IMG/VR virus record: IMGVR_UViG_3300034171_000062
Coordinates: 64,001 to 128,000 of that record
DNA: 64,000 bases
From: a virus
Lineage: Duplodnaviria; Caudoviricetes
Reading direction: 5' to 3' (one strand)
Below are positions 1,081 through 18,516 of this stretch, in pieces. Positions within the stretch are counted from its first letter, which is position 1. Each line of letters starts with the position of its first letter. The notes under the pieces were generated by a model. The model ran no database searches. It was not told the origin of the DNA and worked only from the letters and a program-made list of their open reading frames with translations. The position numbers and the translations under genes are program-made.

Positions 1081-1109
1081 CGGAATAAAAGGAGACCCGA
1101 AGGTCTCCT
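1081..1109 (-). terminator. Terminator closing the biosynthetic cluster
   Basis: Minus strand AGGAGACC-TTCG-GGTCTCCT-TTTATTCCG, overlapping the stop codon of the last desaturase. Confidence 0.85.
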
Positions 1110-2678: not shown

Positions 2679-2687
2679 GATGGTCTC

Positions 2688-3482
2688 CTACGTCTTGAAT
2701 CGTGGCAACGGATGGTGGCGGTGGTGAATGAGTTTGATGACCTGCGCCGGGATGTCCCACTCCCACCAATTTACCCGAGTGTTCCACCGAGACGGGTGCG
2801 CGTGGTGGTTGTTGTGCCAGCCTTCGCCCATGGTGATCAGGTTCGCGATCCAACTGTTGCGACTGGTGTCGCCCTTGAGATCAAACGTCCGATAGCCGTG
2901 TAGGTGAGGGATGACGATGATGCCGCAGGCGCTGTGCAGCGACAGCACCGCCGGAATCGCATAGACAAAAACCACGCCTTGCCACCCAAGAGTAGCAAAC
3001 AGCGCCACGTTCCACACCGCAATGACGTGGAAGTAGTATTTGTGGGTCCATTTGTAGAACGGGTCTTTACGCAACCGCTTGGAGACTTGCCCGGCTTTCT
3101 TAAACCCTGAGGTGTTCCAAGCCCCAAACCACGCGCGTAAGACCCCAATGCGCTGAGGGCTGTGTGGGTCGTGTTCGTCGTCGGTGTGTATGTGGTGGAT
3201 GCGGTGCACGATCGTCCATGCCATGGGTGACCCCACGGTGGTGACAATGCCACAGAACATCAACACCGCTTCAATGGGTCGGTAGGTCTTAAAGGCCCCA
3301 TGGGCTAAGAACCGATGGAACCCAACGTCGATGCCTAAGATCCCTGTGACCCAATACGTCAGCCAGGCGGTCAGCAACCACAGCCACTGTCCTTCCATCA
3401 CCGCCCAGACGCCCACTGGGATCGCCACGGCGTGCGTCAGTATCTGGAGTAGGCGAACCCCCACGTTGTGCGTTAACTTCAC
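2688..3482 (-). CDS. Membrane fatty-acid desaturase (delta-9-like), copy 2
   Basis: His boxes HRFLAH, HRIHH and GEGWHNNHH; DPHSP motif; GTG start. Confidence 0.92.
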   Translation of the reverse strand: MKLTHNVGVRLLQILTHAVAIPVGVWAVMEGQWLWLLTAWLTYWVTGILGIDVGFHRFLAHGAFKTYRPIEAVLMFCGIVTTVGSPMAWTIVHRIHHIHTDDEHDPHSPQRIGVLRAWFGAWNTSGFKKAGQVSKRLRKDPFYKWTHKYYFHVIAVWNVALFATLGWQGVVFVYAIPAVLSLHSACGIIVIPHLHGYRTFDLKGDTSRNSWIANLITMGEGWHNNHHAHPSRWNTRVNWWEWDIPAQVIKLIHHRHHPLPRFKT

Positions 3483-3487
3483 GGTAA

Positions 3488-4246
3488 TTACCCTCTTCGT
3501 TTAATAACCCAAATGAACCAAGCCGTAGGATCGAGTTCCCACCACTTGTGCTGAAAACTGTACCGCCCAGGGTAAGCATGGTGGTTGTTGTGCCAGCCGT
3601 CGCCCACGGTTAAAATATGGGTGACCAGACTGTTCTTAGAATGGTCTTTGGTCTCGTAGTTCCGATAGCCCCATTGATGTGCAAAGATCCCCAACACGTA
3701 GGCGATTAAGAACGCATGCAACGCCGCGGGGAGCACGTACCCCGCCAACACCAAGTCCAACCCACCGAGGACGTAGAGACCCACCACCGCTAACGCGTGT
3801 ATGTAGAAATACCACCGATCCATAAACACCATGATCGGATCTTTCAGCACGTCCTTCATCGCTACCCGACGCCCGTCGTGTTCGAGGTGGTACAGGCAGA
3901 ACAACGCTTTCCAATGCCCCACGACTCGATGGCAATGGGGGTCTTTCTCCGTGTCCGAGTATCGGTGGTGGGCGCGGTGTATCCAGGCCCAACTGATCGG
4001 ACTGCCCGTCAAACACAGCACGCTGAGTATCCCCATTACGAACTCCACCGGGGGGTAGGTCTCATAACTGCGGTGAGAAACCAAGCGGTGCAGATAAGCG
4101 TTGAACCCCACGAGTTGTTGAACGCAGTACACAGCCAATGTTACCCACAGTAAGTCCGGGCGCTCCCAGAGAAGGTAAGCCGTCGCAGGAAAGAACGCCG
4201 CCCAAACGTAGAGTCGGTAGACGTTCATCCGAGGGGTACTATACAT
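3488..4246 (-). CDS. Membrane fatty-acid desaturase (delta-9-like), copy 1
   Basis: His boxes HRLVSH, HRAHH and GDGWHNNHH. Start moved to ATG 4246 (MYSTPR), which overlaps the ketosynthase stop codon. Confidence 0.9.
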   Translation of the reverse strand: MYSTPRMNVYRLYVWAAFFPATAYLLWERPDLLWVTLAVYCVQQLVGFNAYLHRLVSHRSYETYPPVEFVMGILSVLCLTGSPISWAWIHRAHHRYSDTEKDPHCHRVVGHWKALFCLYHLEHDGRRVAMKDVLKDPIMVFMDRWYFYIHALAVVGLYVLGGLDLVLAGYVLPAALHAFLIAYVLGIFAHQWGYRNYETKDHSKNSLVTHILTVGDGWHNNHHAYPGRYSFQHKWWELDPTAWFIWVIKRRG

Positions 4247-5456
4247 AGCGAGAAACTCCCAGTACGCAGTTGAGCCCACCAAAACCAAACGCGTTTTTGA
4301 CAAACGCCGTCATGGGTTTTCGAATGGGGGCCTTAGGTAAGTTGATGGGGGGCAAGTCTGGATCGTATTCCAAGTTGCCGTGTGAAACAATGAAACCTTC
4401 TTGCATCATGTACAGACACAGGATCAATTCAACGATGCCACTGGCTGTGACGCTGTGGCCGAGGAGCCGTTTAAGAGCCACCACAGGCACGTCTTTAGAT
4501 CTCTCGCACTCGGCCAACACTTTGGCTTCTATAGCGTCGCCTTTGAGCGTAGAGGTCGCGTGAGCAGAGATAAAGTCCGGACAGATGCCATACCGATGCC
4601 ATAGGGTGTCTAAGACCGACGATAATGAGGCCAGTCCACCTTCGCCGGTGGGGTTGGTTAGGTCGTGTCCATCGGAGTAATCGGCGTACTCCAACGCGAT
4701 GCCGTAGTTGCGTTGCTGGGTCTCGGGGCGTTTAAAATACGCGGCCCTGGATTCCAAGATCACACACCCGGCGCCTTCGCCGACGGTGAAGCCTGCTCGG
4801 TGCGGTGAGAAGGGGACCGAGGCGTGCTCCAAGTTCGGCCCGCGATACAACGCCCGCATGGCATCGAACCCTCCGACAATTTCTTGTAAGACCTTCTCAA
4901 CGCTGACGCAAATGACAACGTCGGCCCGACCTAACTCAATCAGGTCCATGCCCTGAGTCACCACACGGAGGCCGCTGGCACAGGCGTGTTGTACGGTGTG
5001 GATTGGTCCCTTAATCCCCAGAAGGGTGGCTAGAGGACCCGTCACAGCCGTAGGGAGTGACTTTAAGAGATCGAAGGGCGAACTGCGTTTGTCTGGGTTC
5101 ATTAACGACGCATGAGCGTCCATCCCAGTGGCCCCAAACGCTGAAACCAACGCCACCCTCGGCCCTGTCTCCGAATCCCGACACACGGCCTCAGGATCGT
5201 ATCCGGCGTCTTTTAACGCTTTGCGGATAACGTAGTAAGAGAGGTTCAAGGCGTCGTTAGCAATACTCCGGGGGATGTCTGGCGCTAAGAATTGGGTATT
5301 CTCAATGCAAGGTGCGACGGAGGTGGCCTTGACGTGGGGCCAAAGTTCGATCAACGGTTGTATAGTCACGCGTTCCATCTTCAACGCTGAAACGATCTCT
5401 GAATGGTCGGTCCCATACGGTGAGAGAGAGCCGATGCCGGTAATGATTGCAGACAT
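4239..5456 (-). CDS. fabF: Beta-ketoacyl-ACP synthase (FabF/FabB-type, KAS I/II family)
   Basis: Start MSAIITGIG at 5456 with an ACAGGA RBS. Catalytic Cys in HACASG, His in SAHATST and His in LLGHS. Also has PF..RAGF..GEGAG and C-terminal NAFGFGGLN. Confidence 0.88.
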   Translation of the reverse strand: MSAIITGIGSLSPYGTDHSEIVSALKMERVTIQPLIELWPHVKATSVAPCIENTQFLAPDIPRSIANDALNLSYYVIRKALKDAGYDPEAVCRDSETGPRVALVSAFGATGMDAHASLMNPDKRSSPFDLLKSLPTAVTGPLATLLGIKGPIHTVQHACASGLRVVTQGMDLIELGRADVVICVSVEKVLQEIVGGFDAMRALYRGPNLEHASVPFSPHRAGFTVGEGAGCVILESRAAYFKRPETQQRNYGIALEYADYSDGHDLTNPTGEGGLASLSSVLDTLWHRYGICPDFISAHATSTLKGDAIEAKVLAECERSKDVPVVALKRLLGHSVTASGIVELILCLYMMQEGFIVSHGNLEYDPDLPPINLPKAPIRKPMTAFVKNAFGFGGLNCVLGVSRYV

Positions 5457-5527
5457 GGCGATGTCCTGTGTAAATGTGGGTTTGAATCGATATATGTGAG
5501 ACCAGGGTGCACAATTACGTTGGACCA

Positions 5528-5565
5528 TAAGGCAACCGCAGCCCGATTGGACCACCGTTGCCTTA
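5528..5565. repeat. 9-bp inverted repeat in the only sizeable intergenic gap of the cluster
   Basis: TAAGGCAAC (5528-5536) / GTTGCCTTA (5557-5565); on the minus strand the right arm runs into TTATGG. Confidence 0.55.
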
Positions 5566-5572
5566 AGTAAGA

Positions 5573-6097
5573 TCACTCTAAAAAGTCGATGATCAATAAG
5601 CCCAGTTGGGACCCATTACTGCCCCCCACTAAGGTGAGAAACTTTCCACTCAGTCGAACGATCTCTTTCACGCCCACCGACTCGTCGTTGATCAGCACGT
5701 CGTTCTCCGCCACCGCCAAGTACCCGGTCTGGGTCAACTCGTAGGTCTCCCCCGGTGCCAGCACTATCTTCTCAGCGGTGATGACGCGGTGTTTGGCGTT
5801 GCCGGTGCTCAAACAAAAGCCAACGGTGCCGTCTTCCAGCGCTTCCACTTCGGCCCACCGAGGGTTGGCCTTTGTAGGCACGGGGTCCGAGGCCCACAGA
5901 GTGTACTCGTTAAACGTGTTGCGGGTATGGGTACCGCCTTGCACAATAAACCGAGCTTCTTTAACGGGGATGAAATCGTCGGCCATGGTTTCTTGGTAGT
6001 CGGGTTTTCTACCTAGAATGAACTTCTCACCTTTGTCCACGTAGAACCAGGCGCAGGCTACGCCTTCGTCTTTTAGTCGATGCACTCGAGTTCGCAT
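5573..6097 (-). CDS. Hypothetical beta-rich protein (possibly cupin-like) in the biosynthetic cluster
   Basis: Start MRTRVHRL at 6097 with an AAGGA RBS; co-oriented in the operon; beta-strand-like patterns such as KIVLAPGETYEL. Confidence 0.65.
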   Translation of the reverse strand: MRTRVHRLKDEGVACAWFYVDKGEKFILGRKPDYQETMADDFIPVKEARFIVQGGTHTRNTFNEYTLWASDPVPTKANPRWAEVEALEDGTVGFCLSTGNAKHRVITAEKIVLAPGETYELTQTGYLAVAENDVLINDESVGVKEIVRLSGKFLTLVGGSNGSQLGLLIIDFLE

Positions 6098-6107
6098 GTC
6101 TTCGTCC

Positions 6108-6662
6108 TTACTCTTTAAGGTAAACGTCAATGGGAATGGCCAAACGCAACCCAACGCGATGTTCCTGCACGTAGTGTTGCAAGTACGACGGAAAGATCAG
6201 CAGCCCTCCCCGCTCGGGCTTGTGCTTGTACGTTCGGAAGTGGTTGTTGATCACGTCGTGTGGGTACCCACGAGAAGCCAATCCGCGAGGGTCTACCATA
6301 GACAGGTACCCTTCTTCGCCTTCCAAGTAATACAACGCTGAGACGTGAGCACCGCTGTGGTGGTGGAGTGGACTGCCGTGACCGTCACTGCTGTTGCGTA
6401 CCCAGGCTTGCCAATTGTCGATCAGGGGTTCGTAGTTAAACTGATCCCACGCGTACTGCATCATCAAAGGCACCACGTTCTCCGCAATGAACTTCTTGAG
6501 GTTGGGGTACTGAGGTAAGTGCAGATTGCGCGTTTCATCGATGTGCTGCCCGTCCAACTGCCTCGGTTGCATCATCGCCTCGTACACTAGGGCGTCGTGG
6601 TTCTCGGCAACAACCGTATCGGCGCGAAGGACGACTGGCCAAGGGTGAATGTCGATGGGCAT
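6108..6662 (-). CDS. Putative 2OG-Fe(II) oxygenase (TIGR02466-like), copy 2
   Basis: W..HHHSG..SALYYL..DPRG..GLLIFPSYLQHYV..RLAI motif series; AAGGAG RBS. Confidence 0.8.
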   Translation of the reverse strand: MPIDIHPWPVVLRADTVVAENHDALVYEAMMQPRQLDGQHIDETRNLHLPQYPNLKKFIAENVVPLMMQYAWDQFNYEPLIDNWQAWVRNSSDGHGSPLHHHSGAHVSALYYLEGEEGYLSMVDPRGLASRGYPHDVINNHFRTYKHKPERGGLLIFPSYLQHYVQEHRVGLRLAIPIDVYLKE

Positions 6663-6671
6663 GGAAACTCC

Positions 6672-7238
6672 TTATGTCGGTTCTTGCAGATAGATATCCA
6701 CTGGGATAGACACCCGCATGTCTTTGTCGTGACCGTCGACGTAGTGTTGCAAGTACGACGGAAAGATCACCAAGAGACCTTCTTTGGGGACCTCGCTAAA
6801 CAGATTGAAATGGTCGTTGCGCACCTGCGTTGGATACCCTCGACACGCCGACCCACGAGGATCGACCAAGTTGATCGCGCCACCGGAACACGCCATAGGG
6901 TAATAGATAGCGGACAACACCGACCCACTGTGTTCGTGCAACTTCATTCCTTGGCCGTCGGTGGTGACCCGGACCCAGGCGTTGTACGTGTACTGGACAG
7001 CGTCCAACCCCCAGCAGTCGTTAAGGTAAGCGAGCATCCTCGGAAGGATGTGCTCGTTGAGAAACGCGTTGGTCTGTGGGAAGTCAGTGTCCGTGACCGT
7101 GTTCTCATCCAGATCGAGGTTGTCAAAGTTACGGTTGGTTAAGCGCATCAGAGACTCGGTCACCAGGACCTCATTGTCCACGTCCTCTAACACGCTGCGC
7201 CTAACTACTGTTCGCCAAGGTTCGATGTCTTGAAACAT
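6672..7238 (-). CDS. Putative 2OG-Fe(II) oxygenase (TIGR02466-like), copy 1
   Basis: AWV..HEHSG..SAIYYP..DPRG..GLLVIFPSYLQHYV..RVSI; paralog of the downstream gene; start MFQDIEP at 7238 with a GGAGG RBS. Confidence 0.8.
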   Translation of the reverse strand: MFQDIEPWRTVVRRSVLEDVDNEVLVTESLMRLTNRNFDNLDLDENTVTDTDFPQTNAFLNEHILPRMLAYLNDCWGLDAVQYTYNAWVRVTTDGQGMKLHEHSGSVLSAIYYPMACSGGAINLVDPRGSACRGYPTQVRNDHFNLFSEVPKEGLLVIFPSYLQHYVDGHDKDMRVSIPVDIYLQEPT

Positions 7239-7657
7239 TCTGCCTCCGCCATGCACTCGGCTCGAAAATACGCAACGGTGTAGTCAACCCACTGGCCCGT
7301 TAAAGGAATGTTTTCCACCCCCCCAAAGGTATCAAGGATGGCGTCGTACGTGGTTGGGTCTTGTGAGTAAGGCACGAAATATTCGTCGTTGCCGTACAGC
7401 AGATCCGGGTCGTCCAACACCTCGAAGAACGCTTCGTTGAAGTGCTCCCACAAGAGACGCGCGTAGATCAACGCCACCGCATACGACTTCGCCGGATAGA
7501 CCAACACGTCTTGAGGGTCGGTGAAGTAAGCCACGGCCGGCACCACTAAGTCGTCGTGGTCCACCACGATGTCAAAGTTCTCCAACGCGTCCGTGTGTTC
7601 GGGCGTCATCAGGTGATACAGTTGCTGGTTGAGTTTCCAGGTTTTTTTGTGACTCAT
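7205..7657 (-). CDS. Hypothetical acidic protein of the radical SAM cluster
   Basis: ATGA overlap with the upstream rSAM stop; distinctive YPAKSYAVALIYA and DDPDLLYGNDEYFVPY segments. Confidence 0.75.
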   Translation of the reverse strand: MSHKKTWKLNQQLYHLMTPEHTDALENFDIVVDHDDLVVPAVAYFTDPQDVLVYPAKSYAVALIYARLLWEHFNEAFFEVLDDPDLLYGNDEYFVPYSQDPTTYDAILDTFGGVENIPLTGQWVDYTVAYFRAECMAEAECFKTSNLGEQ

Positions 7658-8742
7658 GCGCTCCGCCTCACCCAATTAAATTCACTTCTCAAGTCGCGGG
7701 CGGTGGAAATGCACCGATCGGCCTTGGTGATCTCCATCACTTTCTGCACGCCCCGTACCGCGCACTTGGCAACGAACTCACAGCCGCCACAGACGCCGTT
7801 GGACTGGGCTAACGTGATACACTCGAACATAGACGCTTCTTCTTGAGTAAAGATGTTCTCGAAGGTCCAGGGTCCGGCAACCCGATGTTCCGGTTCGAAT
7901 GAGGAAAACGCTTCTACGATGAACGGGGGGACAAACATCTCTCCGTTGCGATACACCACGTCCCAATCCTCACCCTCGTTGGTTTGCAGTTCCACAATTT
8001 CAAAGTGCTCGCCCTTCTCGTTGGCCGCGATGCGAGACTGAACCAGTAAGTGGTTCAAGTGGTGGAGGCTGGTTAGAAACCGATCCCGATTGGCTGGGTC
8101 TCGCAAACTTTCACGCCCATGGGGTAAAATGATGTCACTGTGGCTGGTGGGATGAAGATCGATGCGGTACGCCCGGGTCATGATGTCACTGGTCATGGTA
8201 AACCCACGTTTGGCGTCGTTGGCTATCGACTCTTCAAAGTTCATCACGCTGTAGACCCGAGTGATCTTCACCGTCTTCAAACAACTTTCAAAATACGCCA
8301 CCCGTTTGCAAAGCTTATCGACGTAGGACGGGTTGTCGATGTGTCTTACTTCAAAGGGCACGGTAAACTTCAACAACCCATTGGGAATCATCGCCTCCAT
8401 CTGTTGGGCCAGCTTTTGATAAATGAGGGGGTTGGGATCAAGGAACGCGCAGTTCAAAGTCGTCTTCATGAACCGCCGGGCAATGGACAAAACTCTGGGG
8501 TGTTCCAGAACGGCGTCTCTATTGTCAGAACTCAAAATGTCCGTGGGTCCTATGATGAAGTTGAGCATCTCCAGTTCTGCCACCTCGAAGCTGTCAAGCA
8601 TAGCGTCGATCCGGTCAAATTCTTCTTCAGTAGGAAGAACGTTGTCTTCTTTCTCCACCATACAGCCAGAGCAGTTGTGACGACATCCGGAGGCGATCTC
8701 CATAGTGAAGTCGATTAACTTATTGATTTGGGATATGTGCAT
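7654..8742 (-). CDS. Divergent radical SAM protein with a C-terminal Cys cluster (SPASM-like), rSAM-6
   Basis: CRHNCSGC motif near the true N-terminus (ATG 8742, MHISQ); C-terminal CGGCEFVAKC...C; GGEP replaced by GPTD. Confidence 0.75.
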   Translation of the reverse strand: MHISQINKLIDFTMEIASGCRHNCSGCMVEKEDNVLPTEEEFDRIDAMLDSFEVAELEMLNFIIGPTDILSSDNRDAVLEHPRVLSIARRFMKTTLNCAFLDPNPLIYQKLAQQMEAMIPNGLLKFTVPFEVRHIDNPSYVDKLCKRVAYFESCLKTVKITRVYSVMNFEESIANDAKRGFTMTSDIMTRAYRIDLHPTSHSDIILPHGRESLRDPANRDRFLTSLHHLNHLLVQSRIAANEKGEHFEIVELQTNEGEDWDVVYRNGEMFVPPFIVEAFSSFEPEHRVAGPWTFENIFTQEEASMFECITLAQSNGVCGGCEFVAKCAVRGVQKVMEITKADRCISTARDLRSEFNWVRRSA

Positions 8743-8746
8743 GTGC

Positions 8747-9802
8747 TCACCAGTTGCATTTGTGACCGAGTTTGCCAAGTATGGATAAACACCGATCCGT
8801 CTCCAGTAATCGCTGAACACGGTGAACGCCCCGCGTAGCACATTTACTGACAAATCGACATCCGGAACAGTCATTAGACTGCGACGCGCGCGTAATCGAT
8901 TCGAAGAAGGTGTCTTGATCCGAACGTTGTATTGAATCCAATGTCCAAGGCTTCTCAAATTTAAAGTCGGGGTGGAAGACAGCAATCGGACTGTTAATAA
9001 ACGGTGCGATGTAAAGATCCCCATTCCGATAGGCCAAATGGTAGTCGGCCCCAACGTGAGCGCTCAAGTCGTCGACTGTGAACTCGTATCCGGCGTCCAC
9101 TTGATTGGCAAAGGTTTGGTTCTGTTTTAAGATGGCGCGCAAGAACTCATCGCGATCTTCCTTTACGCTGAGATCCCGGCGGCCGTAGTGAAACACGAAC
9201 GTGGTGGTGTCCGATTTCTCAAACAACTCGATGTGTCGGGTGGCGTAAAGAACCTCTTCATTGATCAGGCCGTTATCAAGCATGGACTCGGTCATGTTGA
9301 CGATGGCCGTCACGCTGGCGATTGTGACTGTTTCTAAGTGTTGATTGAGCCAAGCAATCCGCCCTCGGAGTTTCTCCAAGTAGGCGACGTTGCGGTGGTG
9401 TTTCAATTCAACGGGCACCAAGAACTCTACGTTCAGACCGGGCATAAACGCGTCCAACTCTTTAGCGAATTCCACGTAAGCATCGGCCTTGGGATTCAAG
9501 AACGAACAGTTAAAGACCACCGATTTAAACCCAGTAACTAGATCCCGTATGATGGGATGAGTCAATACGTCGGTCCGGTTGCTGGCCGACATGACGTCCA
9601 CCGGCGCAAACTCCATCCACGACATCTCCCACCCGCGCTCACGCACGTCGTCCACCACGTCCCGTAAGGCGTGGAGGTCGTCTTCGGTGTATGGGGTTAC
9701 ACCTGTGGTGTTAACGCTGCACCCTGAACACCCGTAGTCGCAGTCTTTCAGTAGTTCCAGTGCCAGGTTACCAATGTTGTCCCCTCGGATCATAATCGTC
9801 AT
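8747..9802 (-). CDS. Divergent radical SAM protein with a C-terminal Cys cluster, rSAM-5 (paralog of rSAM-6)
   Basis: CDYGCSGC; C-terminal CSGCRFVSKC...C; shares YRNG.L/M...PFI and KCA.RGV motifs with rSAM-6; ATGA overlap. Confidence 0.75.
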   Translation of the reverse strand: MTIMIRGDNIGNLALELLKDCDYGCSGCSVNTTGVTPYTEDDLHALRDVVDDVRERGWEMSWMEFAPVDVMSASNRTDVLTHPIIRDLVTGFKSVVFNCSFLNPKADAYVEFAKELDAFMPGLNVEFLVPVELKHHRNVAYLEKLRGRIAWLNQHLETVTIASVTAIVNMTESMLDNGLINEEVLYATRHIELFEKSDTTTFVFHYGRRDLSVKEDRDEFLRAILKQNQTFANQVDAGYEFTVDDLSAHVGADYHLAYRNGDLYIAPFINSPIAVFHPDFKFEKPWTLDSIQRSDQDTFFESITRASQSNDCSGCRFVSKCATRGVHRVQRLLETDRCLSILGKLGHKCNW

Positions 9803-10743
9803 TGTGTCTCAGCCCATTGCAATAAGTGAATGAACCCGTTGCACGACTGGTCGGTACTCTGCACGTCTCTCAGGTGTTCTGACAGACACCGTCCAAAATA
9901 CGTACAGCCGCTGCAACCTGATGTCAGTACCCTCGTCTTCTCAGTGTCACACCACGCAAAATACGCGTCGATGCTGTCCATCTCCAAGAAGAACTCGTTG
10001 TCCGCCTCATCGAACTCCAACACGCCAAACTGGCCGCTGGGGGTGATGTACACATGGTCGTCGGAAAACGCGTTGCGCTGGCCAGACAGACTCTCTTGAA
10101 TCTGCTGAGCGTTGACGAATTCAAACTTCATCTCAGACTGACGTTCGTACAATTGCTTAATGAACGCCTCGTACTCCGGGTATCCTACCGGCAACTGATT
10201 GGCCTGATTCGGACTGTAGGGCTTGATCTCCACCGAACTGAGATTGGCCAGAAGATTCAATGTCCCAACAATCTCATCGGGGGTCTTTGCTAGAACCTCT
10301 GGGGTGGCCAAGATCAGAATCGAGAACTCCCGCTCCATCTTTAACATCTGTTGAAAGACGTGTTCGTGTCTCTCGCGTGCATCGAAGTCGTAGCTGACTG
10401 ACAAGTACCAGTCCGGGTCGTGCATCACAGCGTTGTTCACAGACAGATTGGTGATGATGTTCAGATCGTCGATCCCGCGGGCGTGGAGACCTTCTTTTAA
10501 TTCGTTGATGTACTCCGAAGGCAACAGCAACGGTTCGCCTCCGTAGAGGTCCACCATACCCACGGGTCTATGTGCCAGCACCTCATCCACACGTTCAAAC
10601 AACCGTGTCAGCGACAGACGTTTCTTGTCTGCCAGTTGCACTGGAGTCAAGTAACAGAAGTTGCATCGGAAGTTGCAGTAGTACGAAGGATTTACCGACA
10701 AATTGATCGGTTGATCAGTCGACGTTAACGAGTGTAAGTTCAT
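9799..10743 (-). CDS. Radical SAM protein with a partial SPASM/twitch domain, rSAM-4
   Basis: NPSYYCNFRCNFCY, YGGEP, ITNL; C-terminal CSGCTYFGRC...C; likely start ATG 10743. Confidence 0.88.
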   Translation of the reverse strand: MNLHSLTSTDQPINLSVNPSYYCNFRCNFCYLTPVQLADKKRLSLTRLFERVDEVLAHRPVGMVDLYGGEPLLLPSEYINELKEGLHARGIDDLNIITNLSVNNAVMHDPDWYLSVSYDFDARERHEHVFQQMLKMEREFSILILATPEVLAKTPDEIVGTLNLLANLSSVEIKPYSPNQANQLPVGYPEYEAFIKQLYERQSEMKFEFVNAQQIQESLSGQRNAFSDDHVYITPSGQFGVLEFDEADNEFFLEMDSIDAYFAWCDTEKTRVLTSGCSGCTYFGRCLSEHLRDVQSTDQSCNGFIHLLQWAETQ

Positions 10744-11812
10744 CGATACTCTCATCCACATAGGGGGTTGGGATCAAGATCCCGGTTAATCCGTTGGCTT
10801 CGATGAGGTCGGGGGCCAGTGCTTTCATCTTGCGACAGTGTTCTTCGACGCGGCCGGTCTTCTTGGCGTCTCGGATGCTCTTCTTACAGCCGTTGCAAAT
10901 GGAGAACATGGGACAGAAGTAACAGTCCTGCTTTAAACTGTCCAACTCAAACACCTGAAGTGGGAGTTGCTTCTTACCCGTCATTTCTTCTTCGAAGTTG
11001 ATCGGGTATTCCCCATCGTCACCAAAGGAACCGCAGGAGTAATAGTCCCCACTCGGCTGCATGGCCCGGATGCCAGAGTCGCACGTGCGCTTCAAAGGAC
11101 ACGTGGTAGCACCACCCGCTAGGGCAACGGTCATTTGTTGTGTGCCGTGTTCCCACTCAGTCAGTCCTCGGCGATGGAGGTCCAGATAGACTTCGTACAT
11201 GTCCGCTACCAAGAAGTGCTGACCTTCATTGCCCATGGTGCCTTTCTTGGTTTGAACAACCGGCCCGGAGGCGTTGGCGTAGTTCAGCTTACACGACACA
11301 CCCATGGCCTTGGCCAACTCTACGGTTTTCACCGCTTCATGGCGATTACTCTCATCGACGACGGCGATGAACGTGGGGCGGTATCCTACGTGCTCTAACA
11401 TGGTGTCTGAGACGGCCCAGAACTCGTCTTCGGTGAACGGGGTATAATCCCCCTTCAATCGTTTCTCACCGTACTGGAAGCTCGTAGCGACGCCCACACG
11501 AGGGTGATTGAACAGAGGCGCCCACTTCCCCGGTTTCTTGTAGAACGGCCAGAGATTGGAGGTCAGTGAGATGCTGGTGTTTTCCATCTTCAACTCGTCC
11601 AACATCTCAATCAAGGCCCAGTAATACGCCGGTGGCATCATTAACGGGTCGCCGCCGTTGACGATGATGGTGTTGGTTTCCGGGAAACGTTCCAAGAACC
11701 GACGTATATCGACCAACTCCAGAATGTCGTTGCTGTCCTCGGCGATGTTTGTGCTGGAACAGAACGTGCATTTAAAGTTGCATTTCTCCGTGGGTTTGAT
11801 TATGAGATCAAT
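10715..11812 (-). CDS. Radical SAM/SPASM protein, rSAM-3 (ATT start codon)
   Basis: The ORF track begins at TTG 11716, but the frame extends to ATT 11812: IDLIIKPTEKCNFKCTFCSST, containing CxxxCxxC. AGGAGG lies 8 nt upstream and an in-frame TAG lies 5 codons upstream. Also has NGGDP and SPASM Cys CPLKRTC..YSCG..CYFCPMFSICNGC..C. Confidence 0.88.
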   Translation of the reverse strand: MDLIIKPTEKCNFKCTFCSSTNIAEDSNDILELVDIRRFLERFPETNTIIVNGGDPLMMPPAYYWALIEMLDELKMENTSISLTSNLWPFYKKPGKWAPLFNHPRVGVATSFQYGEKRLKGDYTPFTEDEFWAVSDTMLEHVGYRPTFIAVVDESNRHEAVKTVELAKAMGVSCKLNYANASGPVVQTKKGTMGNEGQHFLVADMYEVYLDLHRRGLTEWEHGTQQMTVALAGGATTCPLKRTCDSGIRAMQPSGDYYSCGSFGDDGEYPINFEEEMTGKKQLPLQVFELDSLKQDCYFCPMFSICNGCKKSIRDAKKTGRVEEHCRKMKALAPDLIEANGLTGILIPTPYVDESIDELTLVNVD

Positions 11813-11841: not shown

Positions 11842-12900
11842 TTAAACGTTCAGTGTGGGTATGCGTTGAGCGGCACCATCGCTGACGGCGTCGATGTATC
11901 GATGGGTGGCTTTGTACACACACTCATCCATTTCGTCTCGGTGGCGATACGCGTGTTGCATGAAGCACCCCAACTCACAGCGTTGAAAGTACTCGCACGT
12001 CAAGCACCCATATTTCTCCATGAAGTGTTCTTCAATGCCCCGATTGCTCTGCGGATCGATGGGCACTTCGTAGATCTCTTCGGCAATCTTTGGGTCGATG
12101 AGGTTACCGCACCCACAGGTAGTGCCGTCTTCCAAAATCAACTTACTGGATCGACACGACAAACTACTGGACTTGCGTTCCATCCACCCAGCGATCGGTT
12201 CGCAGTTTGGGTAGTTATCGATCAAAAACGTAAACAACTTGAACAGATCCAAATCGCCTGGGGCGGCTGGAGTAACTTCATCGGGCATCAGGTAATCGAA
12301 ATAGATCTTAAACCCAGCGCCATAGACCCATTTAAAGAACGCGTCCTGATCTCTTAGGAAGTGATCGATGTTCTGCTTGGTTGCGACTAGACAGACGCTT
12401 CTAATGATTCTGGGTCCGAAGTATTCTAAGTTGGCTTTAAACGCTTCAAACTGCTTGCGGTTAAAGCGACCTTTGGGATCGTAGGACGTCGTGAACGTCG
12501 TGGGAATGCCCGCCGTTGCGCACTCTTCAATGAACAGACTCAATTGAGTTCGATCGTCCGTCACCAGGTTGGTCACCCAGTTAAGCGTGACTCGGATGTT
12601 ATTCAAGCGTGCGTGGGCTACGATCGCTTGTGCCAGTTTTACGTACGCCGCGCGCATCGTGGGAGTAAAGACCTCCGGCGCGAAGACCTCCCCACCCATG
12701 ATGTTAAACACCACAACCGACTTGGTCTCCTTGTCCAGAAGCTTCACCACCGCGGGCAATTTCCCCAGTATATCGTCCACGCCTACTAAGGAGTCGTGGT
12801 CCTGCCAGCAGAAACTGCACGACAGGTTACAGTACTCGAACAGGTGTATCGTGTATTCCTGTTCGGGGTCTCGCTTGCTGTTCAATAAGAGATCGGTCAT
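11842..12900 (-). CDS. Radical SAM/SPASM protein, rSAM-2
   Basis: HLFEYCNLSCSFCW, MGGE, VTNL; C-terminal C..CGC..CLTCEYFQRCELGC..C. Confidence 0.88.
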   Translation of the reverse strand: MTDLLLNSKRDPEQEYTIHLFEYCNLSCSFCWQDHDSLVGVDDILGKLPAVVKLLDKETKSVVVFNIMGGEVFAPEVFTPTMRAAYVKLAQAIVAHARLNNIRVTLNWVTNLVTDDRTQLSLFIEECATAGIPTTFTTSYDPKGRFNRKQFEAFKANLEYFGPRIIRSVCLVATKQNIDHFLRDQDAFFKWVYGAGFKIYFDYLMPDEVTPAAPGDLDLFKLFTFLIDNYPNCEPIAGWMERKSSSLSCRSSKLILEDGTTCGCGNLIDPKIAEEIYEVPIDPQSNRGIEEHFMEKYGCLTCEYFQRCELGCFMQHAYRHRDEMDECVYKATHRYIDAVSDGAAQRIPTLNV

Positions 12901-13910
12901 AGTTCGAACCCTTTACACGCCTCCGACTTCAATCCCACCGCCCAATGGATGACGTGGACTTTTAACTTGTCCATGTCGGCCCAATCTAGGTAGTCGGTGT
13001 GTTCGTTGCTGGCACGTATCATGGAAATGAAAAGATCGGTTGCTTCGCCATCCTCAATCGGGTCGACGCTGCTGATGATCCTTAGTTTGGCCCGTTCGGC
13101 TTCGATTTGCAGTTTCTCGATCTGAGGTTCCTGATCCAGATACAAGGCAAAGTCCCGACACAGCGCGTCTTGAGTGGGTTGTTTCATCCGCGTGATCCGA
13201 AGCGTCAGATTGGGGTCGGTCAAGAAATTGAACCCAGGTACCTTACGCAGTAAATTCACCTCGCCGACGTGCTGGCTGGCGTCGTATCCGTACTTCTTCT
13301 GCATGTGGGCTGAGAAGAACAAAGACACCAGATTACGCTGAATTTCATGCACGTGATTGATCGTCGACCGTAACGCAAACATACGTACGTCCTCGGCGAT
13401 GCTTACGCGCTTGTTGCCTGAAAGATAGTCCAACAACTTATACTCCAGAGAGAGCTTCTCTGGAATGTCGCGCACCACCGTCCGAAGGTCGGCGTCGCCT
13501 TCGAGGTTGGCGTAATCTGAAACCATCTCTTTAACGACTTCCCCTTTAGGTAACGCCACGCCCTGAGTATTCAATGCCACCAGTTCCAGTCCCAATAGGG
13601 TTTGTACTTGACTCAGAGTGGCGTTGGGGAAAATGGCTTTCAGCCACTTACTGATCAACTTACCGTAAGACTCAAGACTGGTGTAGATAACGATCTTCTT
13701 GTCCCCTACGCCTTTATACTGCGTGAGTAACTTAGTGAAACCGGTGGCCACAAACTCATCTTCGTCAGCGGTCAGTCCCATTAGGATAGGACCAGCAAGT
13801 TCTCGCTCGTCGTAGTTCTCAGCCATAACCTTGGAGGCCAGGTAGAACGCATGTTTTTCCGATTTGATGCTATCCACGGCTAGGTAGATGCGATTAAACA
13901 AATGATACAT
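12897..13910 (-). CDS. Hypothetical protein of the radical SAM cluster
   Basis: 337-aa ORF with TAATG overlap upstream and ATGA overlap downstream; no recognised motif. Confidence 0.8.
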   Translation of the reverse strand: MYHLFNRIYLAVDSIKSEKHAFYLASKVMAENYDERELAGPILMGLTADEDEFVATGFTKLLTQYKGVGDKKIVIYTSLESYGKLISKWLKAIFPNATLSQVQTLLGLELVALNTQGVALPKGEVVKEMVSDYANLEGDADLRTVVRDIPEKLSLEYKLLDYLSGNKRVSIAEDVRMFALRSTINHVHEIQRNLVSLFFSAHMQKKYGYDASQHVGEVNLLRKVPGFNFLTDPNLTLRITRMKQPTQDALCRDFALYLDQEPQIEKLQIEAERAKLRIISSVDPIEDGEATDLFISMIRASNEHTDYLDWADMDKLKVHVIHWAVGLKSEACKGFEL

Positions 13911-14635
13911 TACGTTTCCTCGATGGCTATTTCGTCGTTCTTTAAAGCGACGAGCGCGTCTTCGAACTCTTCGTTCGTAAGCATCTCATCGTCCACCATA
14001 GACACCAGAAGAACGTGTAAGTCGTTCTCTGGAATGGCCCAAAACGAAAACAGGTTCTTACTTTTGAACATGTAGTCGTTAAAGTACTTGGTGTAATTCC
14101 GCACCAGGCCGTCGTTTACCACTTCCATGGCGATAGGAAACAACGGATTGTCAAACAGATTGACAAAGTTGATGCCTTTGGTGTCTGCCGTGTCGTCGAC
14201 TGGGTAGTTGTTGACCAGCGCTTGCAGGGCGTCGTCTTGAATGGTTGTCATCATGTACAAACTCATGGAGTCGATCAACGACAGCCACTTGCCCAATATA
14301 CCGAGTCGGTCTTTAATCCATTTGTCGGTCACCCAATTGCACACACCCAATCCCTTGATGTGGAGCATTACTTCCAACACCATGGTTTCCAACTTCTTAC
14401 ATTTCAGTAAGGTGGGTAGGTTCAAATACGCGTCCAACACCTCCAAGGCGTCCTCACCCAAAAAGGTGACTTCAACCGGTAGGTCTAGGTTACTTAAGTA
14501 GATCAGGGCTTGCAGTGGGTTTACTCGATCCTTCGAGGCCGACAGGTCGATCTCCAAAGAGACCTCTGGATCGCCGATGATCTCCCGAAGGGTGGCGACG
14601 GGAATGGGGACGGTGGTTTGGACTACAGTACTCAT
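13910..14635 (-). CDS. Hypothetical protein of the radical SAM cluster
   Basis: Start MSTVVQTT at 14635 overlaps the stop of the CHxx-tail gene (TAATG); acidic, helical. Confidence 0.8.
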   Translation of the reverse strand: MSTVVQTTVPIPVATLREIIGDPEVSLEIDLSASKDRVNPLQALIYLSNLDLPVEVTFLGEDALEVLDAYLNLPTLLKCKKLETMVLEVMLHIKGLGVCNWVTDKWIKDRLGILGKWLSLIDSMSLYMMTTIQDDALQALVNNYPVDDTADTKGINFVNLFDNPLFPIAMEVVNDGLVRNYTKYFNDYMFKSKNLFSFWAIPENDLHVLLVSMVDDEMLTNEEFEDALVALKNDEIAIEET

Positions 14636-15192
14636 TAACGACGTCCTCTTGAGTTGTGACAGCTGTCGTGACATTGGGCGTGACAGATGTCGCGCGCTAA
14701 CGTGTGGGTGGTGTTCACTCGGGCGTAGTTATAATACGCATTGCGTAACCGTTCAATGAACCCGTCCGCGCCCGCCCGATCGATGGCGTAGCCGTCGTCC
14801 ACCGTGCCCGCAGCTTGGGCTGGGATGTTGATTTCCTGGGCGGCGGTTAGATTGGCGATGGTCGTGGTGTCGTATATCACTCTATACCCATTGCCTGACG
14901 ACCACCCAGTCCGGTTCTGACGGATATAAATGCGTGTCCGGCGGATGCGGGAGTAGTTCTTCATATACGCATGCAGGGTAGCGCGCATGGTGTCGGCATC
15001 CAATACCCCACCCGGACCTTCAATCGCCGCGTAGGGCGGCAATGAGTAGTATCCGCTGGTAGTGCCCCCAAACCATCCGTACAGGGAATTTGCTGGGTAG
15101 TTGTTGGTGCCCCAGGATATCCCACTGCGGGACAGGGCACTTACCCTTTCACTGAATTTTAAGTAGACGTCTGCTGTCTTGATCTCGGCCAT
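14635..15192 (-). CDS. Candidate substrate/precursor protein with C-terminal (CHxx)3-RGRR tail; virion-protein-like body
   Basis: 185 aa ending RDICHAQCHDSCHNSRGRR; Gly/Thr/Tyr-rich body; AGGA RBS; embedded among rSAM genes. Confidence 0.7.
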   Translation of the reverse strand: MAEIKTADVYLKFSERVSALSRSGISWGTNNYPANSLYGWFGGTTSGYYSLPPYAAIEGPGGVLDADTMRATLHAYMKNYSRIRRTRIYIRQNRTGWSSGNGYRVIYDTTTIANLTAAQEINIPAQAAGTVDDGYAIDRAGADGFIERLRNAYYNYARVNTTHTLARDICHAQCHDSCHNSRGRR

Positions 15193-15238: not shown

Positions 15239-16288
15239 TTATCCCACGTTAAGTACCGGAATGATATCCGTCTCTCCGTATTTAAAGTGAGATAGGAGCA
15301 ATCTCAATCCAGGACACGAGTTGCCCTGCCAAATCAGTCGATGGCAGTCCCCGCCACAGACATCGAATAAGTGACAACTTAAGCAGTTGGGGTTAACGTC
15401 CAGTTCGTCGACAATGCGTTCCGTACGACCGTCGCTTAAAAGGAACTCTTCCAAATTGTCGTCCAAGGTCCCGTTCGATTCCACCTTGGCGCCGTTGGCA
15501 CACCCGCCGATGTTTCCTGCGCCGTCTACCGTAAACAAGTTCTGTTCGCACGTGCGGCAGTTGGTGTCTACGTTATACTGGTTGGTTTCGAACTTAGTCT
15601 CTATGGTTTCCAACGTGCCGATGGTGAAGTTGGGTTTCAGACGTTTGTACGCGAAGTACAAATCGTAGTAAAACTTATCCACCGCCCGATTGTCTGGGAA
15701 CATATGGGGGTTGTCCACCGCGTTGCCGTCGGAAGTTAGACGTTCGATGGCCACGTCCGTCACCCCAAACGTCCCCCACAACTTGATCAACTCATCGACG
15801 TTGTACGTAAGAGTCTGATCGGTGACGGTCACAAACATCTTAATGGTGATGTTCATGTCTCGCAGAGTCTTCAAGTTCCCAAGCCACTGTTGATACATCC
15901 GCTCGGTCTTAAATCGATACACTGGGTCCCAACTCGTACCGACGTGACTCCCCATCACTTTGATGAAAAAGTTCGTGTGTTCATCGGTCAACTTATATAT
16001 GAGATTGGTGGTGGCGCCGATTGAGATGTCGTCCCAGCGTTCTTCGCCCACCAGACGTTTGACCGTTAAGGCAAAGTCCCAATGTTCGTGAATAGGACGT
16101 AAGAAAGGCTCGCCCCCATGTAACTCCAAATGTAAATGTTCGTCGTTGAACTGCTGAGCCAACTCACTGACCCACCCAGCAACCTTCTGAGTATCCCAAG
16201 CAGTCTTCGCCCCCTTCGACCCTGAGGTAAAGCAGTGATCGCAATCCAGATTACAAGTGTCCGTTGGTTTGATGTACACTACCTTCAT
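15239..16288 (-). CDS. Radical SAM/SPASM protein, rSAM-1
   Basis: YIKPTDTCNLDCDHCF, HGGEP, TTNL; SPASM CRTC..GGC..CLSCHLFDVCGGDC..C; ATGA overlap with the JmjC gene. Confidence 0.92.
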   Translation of the reverse strand: MKVVYIKPTDTCNLDCDHCFTSGSKGAKTAWDTQKVAGWVSELAQQFNDEHLHLELHGGEPFLRPIHEHWDFALTVKRLVGEERWDDISIGATTNLIYKLTDEHTNFFIKVMGSHVGTSWDPVYRFKTERMYQQWLGNLKTLRDMNITIKMFVTVTDQTLTYNVDELIKLWGTFGVTDVAIERLTSDGNAVDNPHMFPDNRAVDKFYYDLYFAYKRLKPNFTIGTLETIETKFETNQYNVDTNCRTCEQNLFTVDGAGNIGGCANGAKVESNGTLDDNLEEFLLSDGRTERIVDELDVNPNCLSCHLFDVCGGDCHRLIWQGNSCPGLRLLLSHFKYGETDIIPVLNVG

Positions 16289-16770
16289 AACTGCCACCGG
16301 TCTTCTAAGAATTGTTCGTTACCAAAACTGATCATGATCGATTCGAATTCGTTTGTAGCACGATGCATAACGCCCGCCGGAATCCACACCGTTGGGTTGT
16401 ATATCGGATCGAGGGTGATGACCTCCCCACCAATTTCAATCGTCTTTTTACCGTAAACGCATTTCAGTAGAATGTCGTACGGGTCTTCATGCAACCTAAA
16501 GCTAGGCGCGCCAGCCACCGCCCAAAACAGATGTGCGTTGCACGGACCGTCGTGACCGGTTTCCTTCTTTATCCGAACCGTCTCCAACTGCACCTCTCGG
16601 AACACCCGTTCCAACTCTTCCACCTTGATGGTCTTTAAGGAACCGTCGAACGCCTCAGCCACTGAGCTTATCGGGCGAATGTGGTGGTCGGTGTCGATGC
16701 GAGAGACCAAACTTTCCTCGTACAGATCCGGCAGCGTCAGCAGCATTTCAATGCGGTCTTTAAAATCCAT
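16285..16770 (-). CDS. Cupin/JmjC-like oxygenase (resembling the ROX/YcfD cupin_4 family)
   Basis: SFRLHEDPYD (HxD), GKK and WIPAGVMHRA (distal His); start MDFKDR at 16770 with a GAGGAG RBS. Confidence 0.75.
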   Translation of the reverse strand: MDFKDRIEMLLTLPDLYEESLVSRIDTDHHIRPISSVAEAFDGSLKTIKVEELERVFREVQLETVRIKKETGHDGPCNAHLFWAVAGAPSFRLHEDPYDILLKCVYGKKTIEIGGEVITLDPIYNPTVWIPAGVMHRATNEFESIMISFGNEQFLEDRWQL

Positions 16771-16825
16771 GGCGGGTCTCCTCAGTAATCTCATACCTTG
16801 AGCCGTCGAAGTATCGCTTTACACG

Positions 16826-16872: not shown

Positions 16873-18516
16873 TTACTGCCACTGAGGTGGCCATACCACG
16901 CGCCAGGCGCCACTGACGAACGCGTGCAACTGACCGCCCACTTCCCGAAGGGAGAGCGATTCTGCCACGTTCTTTTGCACATACTCAGTTAGCACGTTGG
17001 TCAAACGCCCACTGACGTAAGATTCGACTAAGGCCGGGGTCATGTACCGATCGATGGCGGTGCCTGAGACGGCTTCTGTCTCATTGGCGACCGGGAAGTT
17101 CTCCACCAGACCTAACCCGGTCTGCTCCTTCGTAACCGCGTGGGGGTTGGTCTTGTCGTTAACGTGCGCAGTTAACTGATCCCCTGCAATCTTCTCGATG
17201 GCTTCTCTAACCCGCATGGGCGTCATGTACCGAGTGTTGCTGGCGCCCGATTCTGCTTCGGCTGTATCGGCTATCTGTAGGTTCTCAACGCTACCTAAGC
17301 CCACCTGCGCCTTACTGACGTTGTGGGGGTTGTTAATGGCGTTAACGTGCGCATTAAACGCCTGCCCGACTAACTCGTCGATGGCAGACGCCACCACCGT
17401 GGGCGACATGTATCGATCGCCACGCGTGGCTTCACGCCCGTCGGCCTCATCCGCCATTGGGTAGTTTTGCACGGCCGACAATCCGACCTGAGCCTTAGTG
17501 ACGTTGTGTGGGTTCGACTCGTCATTGATGTGGGCCTGCATCCGATCGCCAAAGAGAGTCTGTACTCCGGCCTTCATGGTAGCTGGGGTAACGAATCGAT
17601 TGGTGGCCGATCCGGCCTCCGCTTCCTCGACAGTCGCATCCGGATAGTTAGACACCGACCCCAACCCGGCCTGCGCCTTGGTCACGTTGTGGGGGTTGTC
17701 GGTTCTCGCCGTATGGGCGTTGAACGGAAGAGTGGCCTGTTCGTTAATTGCCTGAGCCACTCGAAGTGCCGTCATGAACCGAGCGTTGGACGTTCCGTCT
17801 CGTGCCTCTAATTCCGTCGCGGTGCGGTAGTTATCAAGTAACCCGAGTCCCACCTGAGCCTTAGTGACTACGTGTGGGTTGTCAGTACGGGCTTCGTGAC
17901 TGTGCAGTTCGTCGCGTACTTCTTCCGCCCGTACCAACGCTTTCTGATACCGGTCTTCGATCATCGCCTTGAGTTCGTCGTGAGACGCGATGTCGCCGTA
18001 CAGAACGGCCTGCCGGATGCCGTTCAACGCCTCGACTACAAATTCAAACCCATACAGGTCGCCCAAGTCATGAAGGTGCTTGGAGGGGGGGAATGCATCG
18101 GGCCGCCCCAAAAGATCGCCCCACATGACCTCACGTTCATCCAGGTTCAAATTCTCGATGAGGTCGATGATAACCTGAGTGATGTTCGCGTAGTCCCCAC
18201 CCAATACTTGGTAGTTGATGGACAGCTCGTTGGACACCTCAGGATCGGTGACGATGAGGCCGGCACATACTTCTTTACCTGACCGTTCTGACGGATCGGC
18301 GTAGTACATGATCGGAATGTACTGATCGTTCGGAACCAGTATTTCGCCGGTGTCGGCGTCGGTGACCACCAACGACTCGGTAAAAAACGCCCCGTAACGA
18401 GGAACCGCCGCGCGGTTGATGCCCGGTTCCAATGTGTGTAGTTCGCCTAAGATATTATTCTCAGGCGCCGTCCCTGTCAAATCCAGGGGATACTTTATGA
18501 CGTAGTTCTCGCTCAT
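16873..18516 (-). CDS. Tail fibre / virion structural protein with five H-x5-NPHxV(T/S)KxQxGL repeats
   Basis: N-terminal YPLDLTG..N.I..E.H domain shared with 22257-25112; five repeats of about 61 aa. Confidence 0.82.
   Translation of the reverse strand: MSENYVIKYPLDLTGTAPENNILGELHTLEPGINRAAVPRYGAFFTESLVVTDADTGEILVPNDQYIPIMYYADPSERSGKEVCAGLIVTDPEVSNELSINYQVLGGDYANITQVIIDLIENLNLDEREVMWGDLLGRPDAFPPSKHLHDLGDLYGFEFVVEALNGIRQAVLYGDIASHDELKAMIEDRYQKALVRAEEVRDELHSHEARTDNPHVVTKAQVGLGLLDNYRTATELEARDGTSNARFMTALRVAQAINEQATLPFNAHTARTDNPHNVTKAQAGLGSVSNYPDATVEEAEAGSATNRFVTPATMKAGVQTLFGDRMQAHINDESNPHNVTKAQVGLSAVQNYPMADEADGREATRGDRYMSPTVVASAIDELVGQAFNAHVNAINNPHNVSKAQVGLGSVENLQIADTAEAESGASNTRYMTPMRVREAIEKIAGDQLTAHVNDKTNPHAVTKEQTGLGLVENFPVANETEAVSGTAIDRYMTPALVESYVSGRLTNVLTEYVQKNVAESLSLREVGGQLHAFVSGAWRVVWPPQWQ

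Follow-up and report, generated by a model that had tools for sequence, protein, structure and literature searches.

Within a 64,000-nucleotide stretch of viral DNA (positions 64,001 to 128,000 of the IMG/VR record IMGVR_UViG_3300034171_000062, Caudoviricetes; here called the window), the gene for a 185-amino-acid protein, X, lies in a cassette with six radical S-adenosylmethionine (rSAM) enzyme genes, and the encoded protein ends in a Cys/His repeat followed by Arg-Gly-Arg-Arg. We propose, at about even confidence, that this tail is a protein-borne substrate of the co-encoded rSAM enzymes, carried on a fibre-associated protein. The enzymes need a substrate, and modification of the tail is favoured because X is the only constant non-enzyme partner whose motif is both constrained and exposed, the fibres next to it being of changing family. 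Papers on cultured jumbo phages have called such rSAM gene arrays 'highly unusual', naming neither a substrate nor a role (PMC12390700, PMC8066314, PMC8541153). No function has been assigned to the X family in the papers that we found, their remarks being limited to the unusual number of rSAM genes, and X is probably an undescribed enzyme-modified, fibre-associated protein.

The C-terminal tail of X

Translation of the minus-strand open reading frame (ORF) at 14635-15192 gives a protein with the C terminus ...ARDICHAQCHDSCHNSRGRR*, the tail itself reading C-H-A-Q-C-H-D-S-C-H-N-S-R-G-R-R-stop. An earlier note on this DNA had described a 185-residue protein with all three of its Cys in a period-4 tail at 14638-14685, and the translation agrees, placing Cys at residues 170, 174 and 178 only. 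The two His-x-Ser triplets that it listed, HDS and HNS, and the basic RGRR ending are both present. Also seen in the sequence is the gene arrangement that it gave: X lies 46 nt downstream of the rSAM gene 15239-16297, and its TAA stop shares TAATG with the ATG of the next gene (14635-14633). The pattern C[HY]..C[HY].. was found once in a six-frame translation of the whole 64-kb window. The window is part of a 170.6-kb virus record, estimated to be 62% complete, in which X is present in one copy.

Relatives of X were collected by a word-indexed search, which gave 60, and by an exhaustive HMMER search, which gave 184 clusters at 50% identity; all are unnamed and without a match to any Pfam domain or NCBIfam model. 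The exact C terminus CH..CH..CH..R.RR is found in 183 of the 205 collected proteins, and this invariance, together with the single occurrence in the window, excludes a chance origin of the tail. The consensus of the 183 tails is [V/I]-C-H-[A/S/T]-S-C-H-S-[S/N]-C-H-[G/S/N]-S-R-G-R-R-COOH, in which Cys, His and the Arg residues at -4, -2 and -1 are 100% conserved. The earlier note had pointed to the His-x-Ser triplets; the invariant elements are Cys, His and the terminal R-x-R-R, and not His-x-Ser, since Ser occupies the fourth repeat position in just 68-92% of cases (92, 68 and 86% in repeats one, two and three). Where it is not Ser, this residue is Asn, Ala, Gln or Asp, and never Gly or Pro; the Gln in the first repeat of the window X is a rare state, shared by four of the 183 proteins. 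Three [HYFW]-x-[SN] units occur within the last 24 residues in 162, and two in 26, of the 195 proteins that end in R.RR.

The rest of the protein is far more variable, with a mean column identity of 37% in an alignment of 38 sequences and 24% in an alignment of 122, and 114 of the 183 proteins have no Cys outside the tail. In ORF071 of Ralstonia phage RSF1 and in proteins from Bdellovibrionota the tail is kept, although the body has diverged beyond tblastn detection. The constrained element of X is therefore its tail and not its body. The treatment of the tail as a core in the earlier note is supported in that it forms the conserved functional centre of a genuine protein family. Matches of X to a 3206-residue Calx-beta protein, to a contractile injection system (CIS) tape-measure protein and to P0183 were rejected as repeat or composition artefacts.

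The repeat number is not fixed. Two repeats occur in P0101 and P0105, and four, followed by GDGPG, in P0124, P0127 and P0200. The longest array is that of the homologue P0209 (L083:10001-10684), with thirteen CHxS units arranged in five V-(CHxS)n blocks and RGRR only after the last; its locus has an ordinary enzyme set. In P0173 a poly-Pro linker precedes a final CHSSGRSRR, in P0126 the third His is replaced by Tyr, and P0186 has a period-3 tail with a single Cys, CHSN-HIN-HSS-HGS-RGRR. Having two, three, four or 13 units with a similar enzyme set, tolerating the changes in P0186 and P0126, and excluding Gly and Pro from position 4, X behaves like a repeat substrate.

Linkage to radical SAM enzymes

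The loci compared were 80 from IMG/VR together with those of cultured phages and metagenome contigs, and the window proteins were mapped onto them by phmmer. X is found within one cassette in about 110 loci, which belong to jumbo phages infecting Pseudomonas, Ralstonia, Burkholderia and Agrobacterium, to IMG/VR contigs and to Bdellovibrionota chromosomes; counts for single genes rest on the 95 with a cassette match. The cassette of the window runs entirely on the minus strand (Table 1), in the order fibre-like protein, JmjC-like cupin, rSAM_A, X, Y, Z, rSAM_B to rSAM_F, G and two PF13759 oxygenases. A near-universal order, cupin, rSAM_A, X, Y, (Z), rSAM_B, rSAM_C, rSAM_D, (E/F), G and 2-oxoglutarate (2OG) oxygenase, is seen across the loci, with one to six further rSAM genes after Z and then G and the 2OG oxygenases. 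X is present in 95 of the 95 loci, Y in 93, rSAM_A in 91, rSAM_B in 89, rSAM_C in 84, rSAM_D in 80, the cupin in 74 and G in 71, and many of the missing genes correspond to contig ends. The smallest cassettes consist of X, Y, Z and two rSAM genes (L003 and L099). Linkage of the tail proteins to loci with several rSAM genes, a check suggested in the earlier note, is essentially complete, so that proteins with this tail are not common where rSAM genes are missing.

Cultured carriers are Pseudomonas phage pPa_SNUABM_DT01, Ralstonia phages RSF1, RSL2 and FLC4, Burkholderia phages FLC6, FLC8 and SURPRISE13, Agrobacterium phage Atu_ph07 and Sinorhizobium phage Phosso. X is QTH80265.1 (locus tag PA10_00065) in pPa_SNUABM_DT01 and AUZ94952 in Atu_ph07. 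The virion proteomics supplement on RP12/RP31 concerns another rSAM cluster and has no bearing on X, and the paper on pPa_SNUABM_DT01 contains no proteomics.

Table 1. Positions of X, its tail and the associated genes in the window
Feature	Positions	Strand	Remarks
Two PF13759 2OG-Fe(II) oxygenases	6108..7256	-	cassette end
G	7205..7675	-	156-aa conserved cassette protein
rSAM_F	7654..8742	-	phrog_31457; CRHNCSGC
rSAM_E	8747..9802	-	phrog_31457; CDYGCSGC
rSAM_D	9799..10761	-	CNFRCNFC
rSAM_C	10715..11812	-	SPASM-type; CNFKCTFC
rSAM_B	11842..12900	-	CNLSCSFC
Z	12897..13910	-	337 aa; third non-enzyme core member; no assigned family
Y	13910..14635	-	241-aa acidic protein; phrog_20767; TAATG-coupled to X
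X	14635..15192	-	185 aa; alpha/beta body (residues 1-170) and invariant C-terminal tail
X tail, C170-R185	14638..14685	-	(C-H-x-x)3-R-G-R-R-COOH in the window translation; stop at 14635-14637
rSAM_A	15239..16297	-	radical SAM/SPASM; CxxxCxxC at residues 15-22
Small cupin/JmjC-like oxygenase	16285..16794	-	cassette head
Tail-fibre-like repeat protein	16873..18516	-	directly upstream of cassette; position conserved in other phages

All six rSAM proteins of the window contain CxxxCxxC, starting at residues 11-29. In rSAM_A the Cys of this motif, GGEP and the eight C-terminal SPASM Cys are invariant among 63 orthologues, and the protein scores above the cut-offs of both PF04055 (30.0 bits against 29.5) and the SPASM model TIGR04085 (28.4 bits against 27). 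The CNFKCTFC motif of rSAM_C sits between an in-frame stop and the first ATG, GTG or TTG (11716), that is, within 11716-11812 on the minus strand, so that rSAM_C must start at a non-canonical codon, Ile codons being available in this range. The start of rSAM_F is likely Met105 of a longer ORF. A B12-binding radical SAM protein of approximately 575 residues adjoins divergent cassettes in three loci (L003:13515-15245, L093:7264-8991 and L088:18668-20338).

Association with tail fibres

In all six of the other phage lineages tested, the gene before the cassette matches tail-fibre PHROGs. These matches belong to different families, and the upstream fibre varies by lineage while X is constant. In phiKZ-like contigs, two fibre-like genes stand immediately before the cupin. 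Two homologues of X that are extended at the C terminus, P0157 and P0181, carry a Peptidase_S74 domain (44.8 and 39 bits, against a Pfam cut-off of 22), which begins with SDERLK or SDRRLK right behind (CHxS)4-GDGPGDG. Peptidase_S74 is a self-cleaving intramolecular chaperone that trimerises the upstream segment in tail fibres and spikes (PMC8326128). Nothing else points as strongly as this fusion to X being a trimeric protein of fibre type with the repeats at its far end, which we extend by inference to the X of the window; the latter has no Pfam match and ends at RGRR, and a C-terminal Peptidase_S74 with its Ser-Lys dyad is not found in it. Gene position and this fused subfamily together back the fibre association that the earlier note had suggested for X.

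Loci of the subfamily contain, besides fibre genes and an oxygenase gene, those for rSAM_A, X, Y and Z and a single further rSAM gene. The RGRR ending is absent there (L097-L099 and L053), and a PF13640 2OG oxygenase is found instead of the JmjC-like cupin. The joint absence of the two tentatively suggests the Arg-rich ending of X as a possible target of the cupin.

The fusion to S74 also makes credible an alternative in which the tail is an unmodified metal-binding tip. An X trimer would bind Zn, Fe or Cu along its axis through the stacked Cys and His of its three chains, and the rSAM enzymes would act on the fibres, on Y or Z, or on a small molecule. Iron-binding His motifs are present in the tips of T4 gp37 and P2 gpV, and His-x-His occurs in phage fibre and spike tips. 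A metal site would agree with the invariance of Cys and His but not Ser, with a repeat number that, like that of a stalk, is free to vary between 2 and 13, and with the position of the subfamily repeats immediately before a domain that trimerises the segment upstream of it (PMC8326128). It leaves unexplained, however, why two to eight rSAM genes should always be accompanied by X, even in the scrambled loci of Bdellovibrionota, and not by any one family of fibres, and why the R-G-R-R-COOH ending is so strict and Gly and Pro are excluded from position 4; moreover, P0186 retains its H-x-S/N units with one Cys. We regard this, the main alternative, as unlikely. It is compatible with the modification of the tail proposed here, as the tip could be both stapled and metal-binding.

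Fold of X and exposure of the tail

The AlphaFold2 model of X, based on 122 sequences, has a mean predicted local distance difference test (pLDDT) score of 91.6 and a predicted template modelling (pTM) score of 0.84. In this monomer model the body, residues 1-170, is an alpha/beta domain with pLDDT >90, and the tail is unstructured, its pLDDT dropping to approximately 55 from the end of the last strand, which argues that the tail is accessible. Foldseek found nothing in the PDB at E<=0.001, the best VIA-align wide match had a Z score of 4.2 with no convincing fold relative, the ESM Atlas gave template modelling (TM) scores of at most 0.37, and matches in BFVD were mainly family members plus three larger proteins of one uncultured myovirus with weak scores. 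Sequence profiles of X and of Z had no match among PDB sequences. As far as these structure searches reach, the modelled body is a new fold. The earlier note had envisaged a long, folded, virion-like carrier in place of a short leader: the long folded body is borne out by the model, whereas 'virion-like' is unproven, because no similarity of the body to a virion protein fold could be detected. Searches with the model of Y gave a best Z of 4.7, covering residues 1-63 only, and no known fold, and hhalign compared Y with rSAM_A at a probability of 0.2. A complex prediction for rSAM_A, X, SAM and three 4Fe-4S clusters scored 0.00, which speaks neither for nor against binding.

A flexible tail exposed on a stable body would also suit a carrier or scaffold arm, holding an intermediate, metallocluster or cofactor that is built by the rSAM enzymes and oxygenases and then passed on, much as scaffold proteins do when cofactors are assembled. 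The presence of many different rSAM enzymes and oxygenases, as in cofactor pathways, would fit, and so would the lipid-synthesis genes that adjoin the cassette in two unrelated loci (a ketosynthase and desaturases in the window, FabH and an acyl ligase in L088). None of the other loci examined has such lipid genes, the cassette includes no conserved recipient enzyme, and the substrates for which SPASM-type enzymes of this size are chiefly known are peptides and proteins; we consider a carrier function improbable.

Still less probable, in our estimate, is a classical RiPP, a peptide made on the ribosome and modified after translation, with the body as an oversized leader from which the modified tail is cut off to act as a free peptide, for instance against the host envelope. 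The core would be C-terminal, as expected, the SPASM enzymes resemble peptide maturases, the variant with five V-(CHxS)n blocks looks like a multi-core precursor, and an ABC exporter pair lies beside one Bdellovibrionota cassette. Yet the cassette has no conserved protease, members of the family retain the fold of the body, and both the place among fibre genes and the fusion to S74 suggest that the protein stays whole.

X in Bdellovibrionota chromosomes

A scan of one genome per species gave seven X loci, five of them in metagenome-assembled genomes (MAGs) of Bdellovibrionota. A profile search then found X in 15 of 401 sampled Bdellovibrionota genomes (about 4%), and among 401 sampled Pseudomonadota genomes in the seed genome only. 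The setting is chromosomal: in one case X lies 2.2 Mb into a contig of 2.4 Mb, in another it shares its contig with genes for EF-G-type and LepA-type GTPases, and the genes flanking the Bdellovibrionota loci are cellular. The five chromosomal loci examined all have Y, an X with the canonical tail and between five and seven CxxxCxxC genes, with gene order and strands scrambled. Retention of the set despite this scrambling is good evidence that the cassette genes are functionally linked.

Among the Bdellovibrionota loci with scanned flanks, there are two in which a protein with a type IV pilin N-terminal methylation motif and a C-terminal Peptidase_S74 adjoins the cassette (L093:17708-18754 and L108:15132-16325). 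They recall the phage-like fibres with which Bdellovibrio recognises its prey (PMC10769870). Two genomes contain tandem X genes with different bodies and canonical tails (L109:9398-10622 and L103), and the ABC exporter gene pair mentioned above, encoding membrane and ATPase domains, is located at L110:1890-5283.

Comparison with known systems

Judged from its sequences, the X locus would work most like the rSAM/SPASM systems that cross-link peptides and proteins, although it is a member of none by the hidden Markov model (HMM) tests that we ran. The best NCBIfam matches of rSAM_A are PapB, DynA, AmcB, YhhB, the anaerobic sulfatase-maturating enzyme (anSME) and HxsB, each far below the equivalog cut-off. 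The affiliation with His-Xaa-Ser (HxsA/B/C) systems considered in the earlier note does not hold by these tests. X, whose canonical tail has period 4 with Cys, has no NCBIfam match at E<=0.01, the HxsA model included; rSAM_A scores 38.7 bits against HxsB (cut-off 370), and HxsC is not among the matches listed. Period-3 H-x-S/N units, as in Hxs precursors, are found in the variant P0186 only.

Triceptide rSAM synthases act on HAA, HNR and HTK and link C2 of His to the beta-carbon of the third residue (PMC11499958). As in triceptide systems (3-CyFE; HaaB, YhhB and HtkB; Fxs and Hxs), X has repeated His-x-Ser/Asn/Ala units near its C terminus and an rSAM/SPASM gene next door, and its H-x-[S/N/A/Q/D] units conform to the Aromatic-X-X pattern. 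In contrast to triceptides, the units of X are split by invariant Cys, they stand on a folded carrier of 170 residues with up to eight rSAM genes, and the cassettes lie in phage or predator fibre loci and not in bacterial natural-product clusters. Against the models of cyclophane synthases, rSAM_A scores 46.5 bits for AmcB (cut-off 425), 41.4 for YhhB (445), 33.5 for GrrM (310) and 33.2 for FxsB (370), scores that show relatedness but reach none of the cut-offs.

With the sactipeptides and ranthipeptides, such as thuricin CD (CxxxCxxxC) and PapA/PapB (six CxxxD), X shares a Cys at every fourth residue and an rSAM of SPASM type, the SPASM/twitch auxiliary-cluster domain being present in rSAM_A. 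PapB is the best NCBIfam match of rSAM_A, and the likeness to PapA/PapB extends to one enzyme working repeatedly on repeated motifs. The scores of rSAM_A for known thioether synthases are nevertheless far from equivalog level (PapB, 49.1 bits against 340; StsB, 28 against 625), and the X locus, unlike those systems, has no visible arrangement of leader and RiPP recognition element (RRE). Since no acceptor segment follows the Cys run of X, a thioether would need neighbouring residues, the body or another chain. The period-4 Cys spacing is also common to the X tail and the substrate of the CXXX-repeat peptide system, for whose maturase (TIGR04115) the best score is that of rSAM_D, 16.2 bits against a cut-off of 350.

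The enzymes of the cassette resemble anSME (which turns Cys or Ser into formylglycine) and QhpD (which forms the QhpC thioethers) in being approximately 350 residues long, starting at CxxxCxxC, lacking an RRE and, as a type, having a full SPASM domain and whole proteins as substrates. The target motif in sulfatases is C-x-P-S-R, and the last repeat of X, C-H-x-S-R, has the same spacing from Cys to Arg and the same Ser-Arg. Unlike the sulfatase motif, it has neither Pro nor Ala, position +2 being mostly G, S or N; X itself is neither a sulfatase nor a dehydrogenase subunit, unlike the substrates of anSME and QhpD, and the score against the anSME model TIGR03942 is 41.3 bits (cut-off 349).

Finally, the position in fibre genes and the repeats of metal ligands are reminiscent of metal-stabilised trimeric tips (endosialidase, T5 pb1, T4 gp37-type needles and the MAT fibres of Bdellovibrio), and in the X subfamily an S-D-x-R-L-K cleavage motif with Peptidase_S74 follows the repeats, as in chaperone-bearing fibres. 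The window X differs from these tips in that it has no chaperone domain, ends in RGRR and has a body that matches no fibre fold. To our knowledge, no fibre tip described so far has dedicated rSAM enzymes.

A proposed model for modification of the tail

In the mechanism that we propose, the co-encoded radical SAM/SPASM enzymes would modify the exposed (C-H-x-S)n-R-G-R-R-COOH tail of X post-translationally, working repeatedly along its repeats, with Y and Z as obligatory partners and probably with the participation of the Fe(II) oxygenases. The likely products would be cyclophane-type cross-links on His-x-(Ser/Asn/Ala), thioethers on Cys, or both. As far as the sequences go, a cyclophane is consistent with the exclusion of Gly and Pro from position 4 and with the His-to-Tyr and period-3 variants, a thioether with the invariant period-4 Cys and the PapB-like best match, and conversion of Cys to formylglycine with the RRE-less architecture of approximately 350 residues and the C-x-x-S-R ending. 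The modified X would probably be a trimer whose tail forms a stapled and possibly metal-binding tip or stalk, and it would cooperate with tail fibres or with the surface fibres of Bdellovibrio.

The family, the invariance of its tail, its linkage to the cassette and its association with fibres are shown; the tail as substrate, the chemistry, the trimerisation of the window X and its place in the virion are inferred. Several points weigh against modification of the tail. No N-terminal recognition domain of the RRE type is found in the six window enzymes, where the beginning of CxxxCxxC at residues 11-29 leaves no room for one, and Y has no recognisable RRE fold. Every equivalog HMM score of the cassette enzymes is far under its cut-off. 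None of the rSAM paralogues is universal, rSAM_A itself being absent from L003, and the number of rSAM genes per locus (2 to 8) does not track the repeat count: a relationship between the two was considered and rejected, as two repeats are found with five rSAM-like genes, four with two, and 13 with six. In the cultured phages, X is labelled only 'hypothetical', beside annotated virion structural genes. Lastly, where Cys/His repeats immediately precede a trimerising chaperone, a role as metal ligands would account for them as well.

A further-reaching possibility, which we put forward with clear doubt, is that the rSAM battery covalently cross-links the Cys/His repeat at the end of a fibre-associated structural protein, giving a stapled tip that binds metal and serves both jumbo phages and predatory Bdellovibrionota in engaging a Gram-negative envelope. 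If true, this would be the first RiPP-type rSAM chemistry on a virion or predator-surface protein, and a tool common to phages and bacterial predators. If the tail is modified at all, RiPP-type radical chemistry would extend to full-size proteins tied to host recognition, and new Cys/His cross-links may be revealed; if it does no more than bind metal, what two to eight conserved rSAM enzymes in phage fibre modules act on becomes a sharply posed question. For the rSAM arrays of jumbo phages there is now a specific substrate candidate, marked by an invariant motif of 16 residues, and the present analysis defines the smallest set of genes (X, Y and Z with two rSAM enzymes), cultured carrier phages and an unexpected second home in predatory bacteria.

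Other genes in the window

Downstream of the window's cassette (1108-5576, minus strand) are genes for a FabF-like ketosynthase and, in tandem, four fatty-acid desaturases. They were considered as cassette members and rejected, having no homologue in any other locus examined, and are an add-on of the window phage. The window also encodes three DUF285 (PF03382) repeat proteins, at 26812-27816 and 42901-43980 on the minus strand and 47270-48427 on the plus strand, one of which has a weak PKD match.

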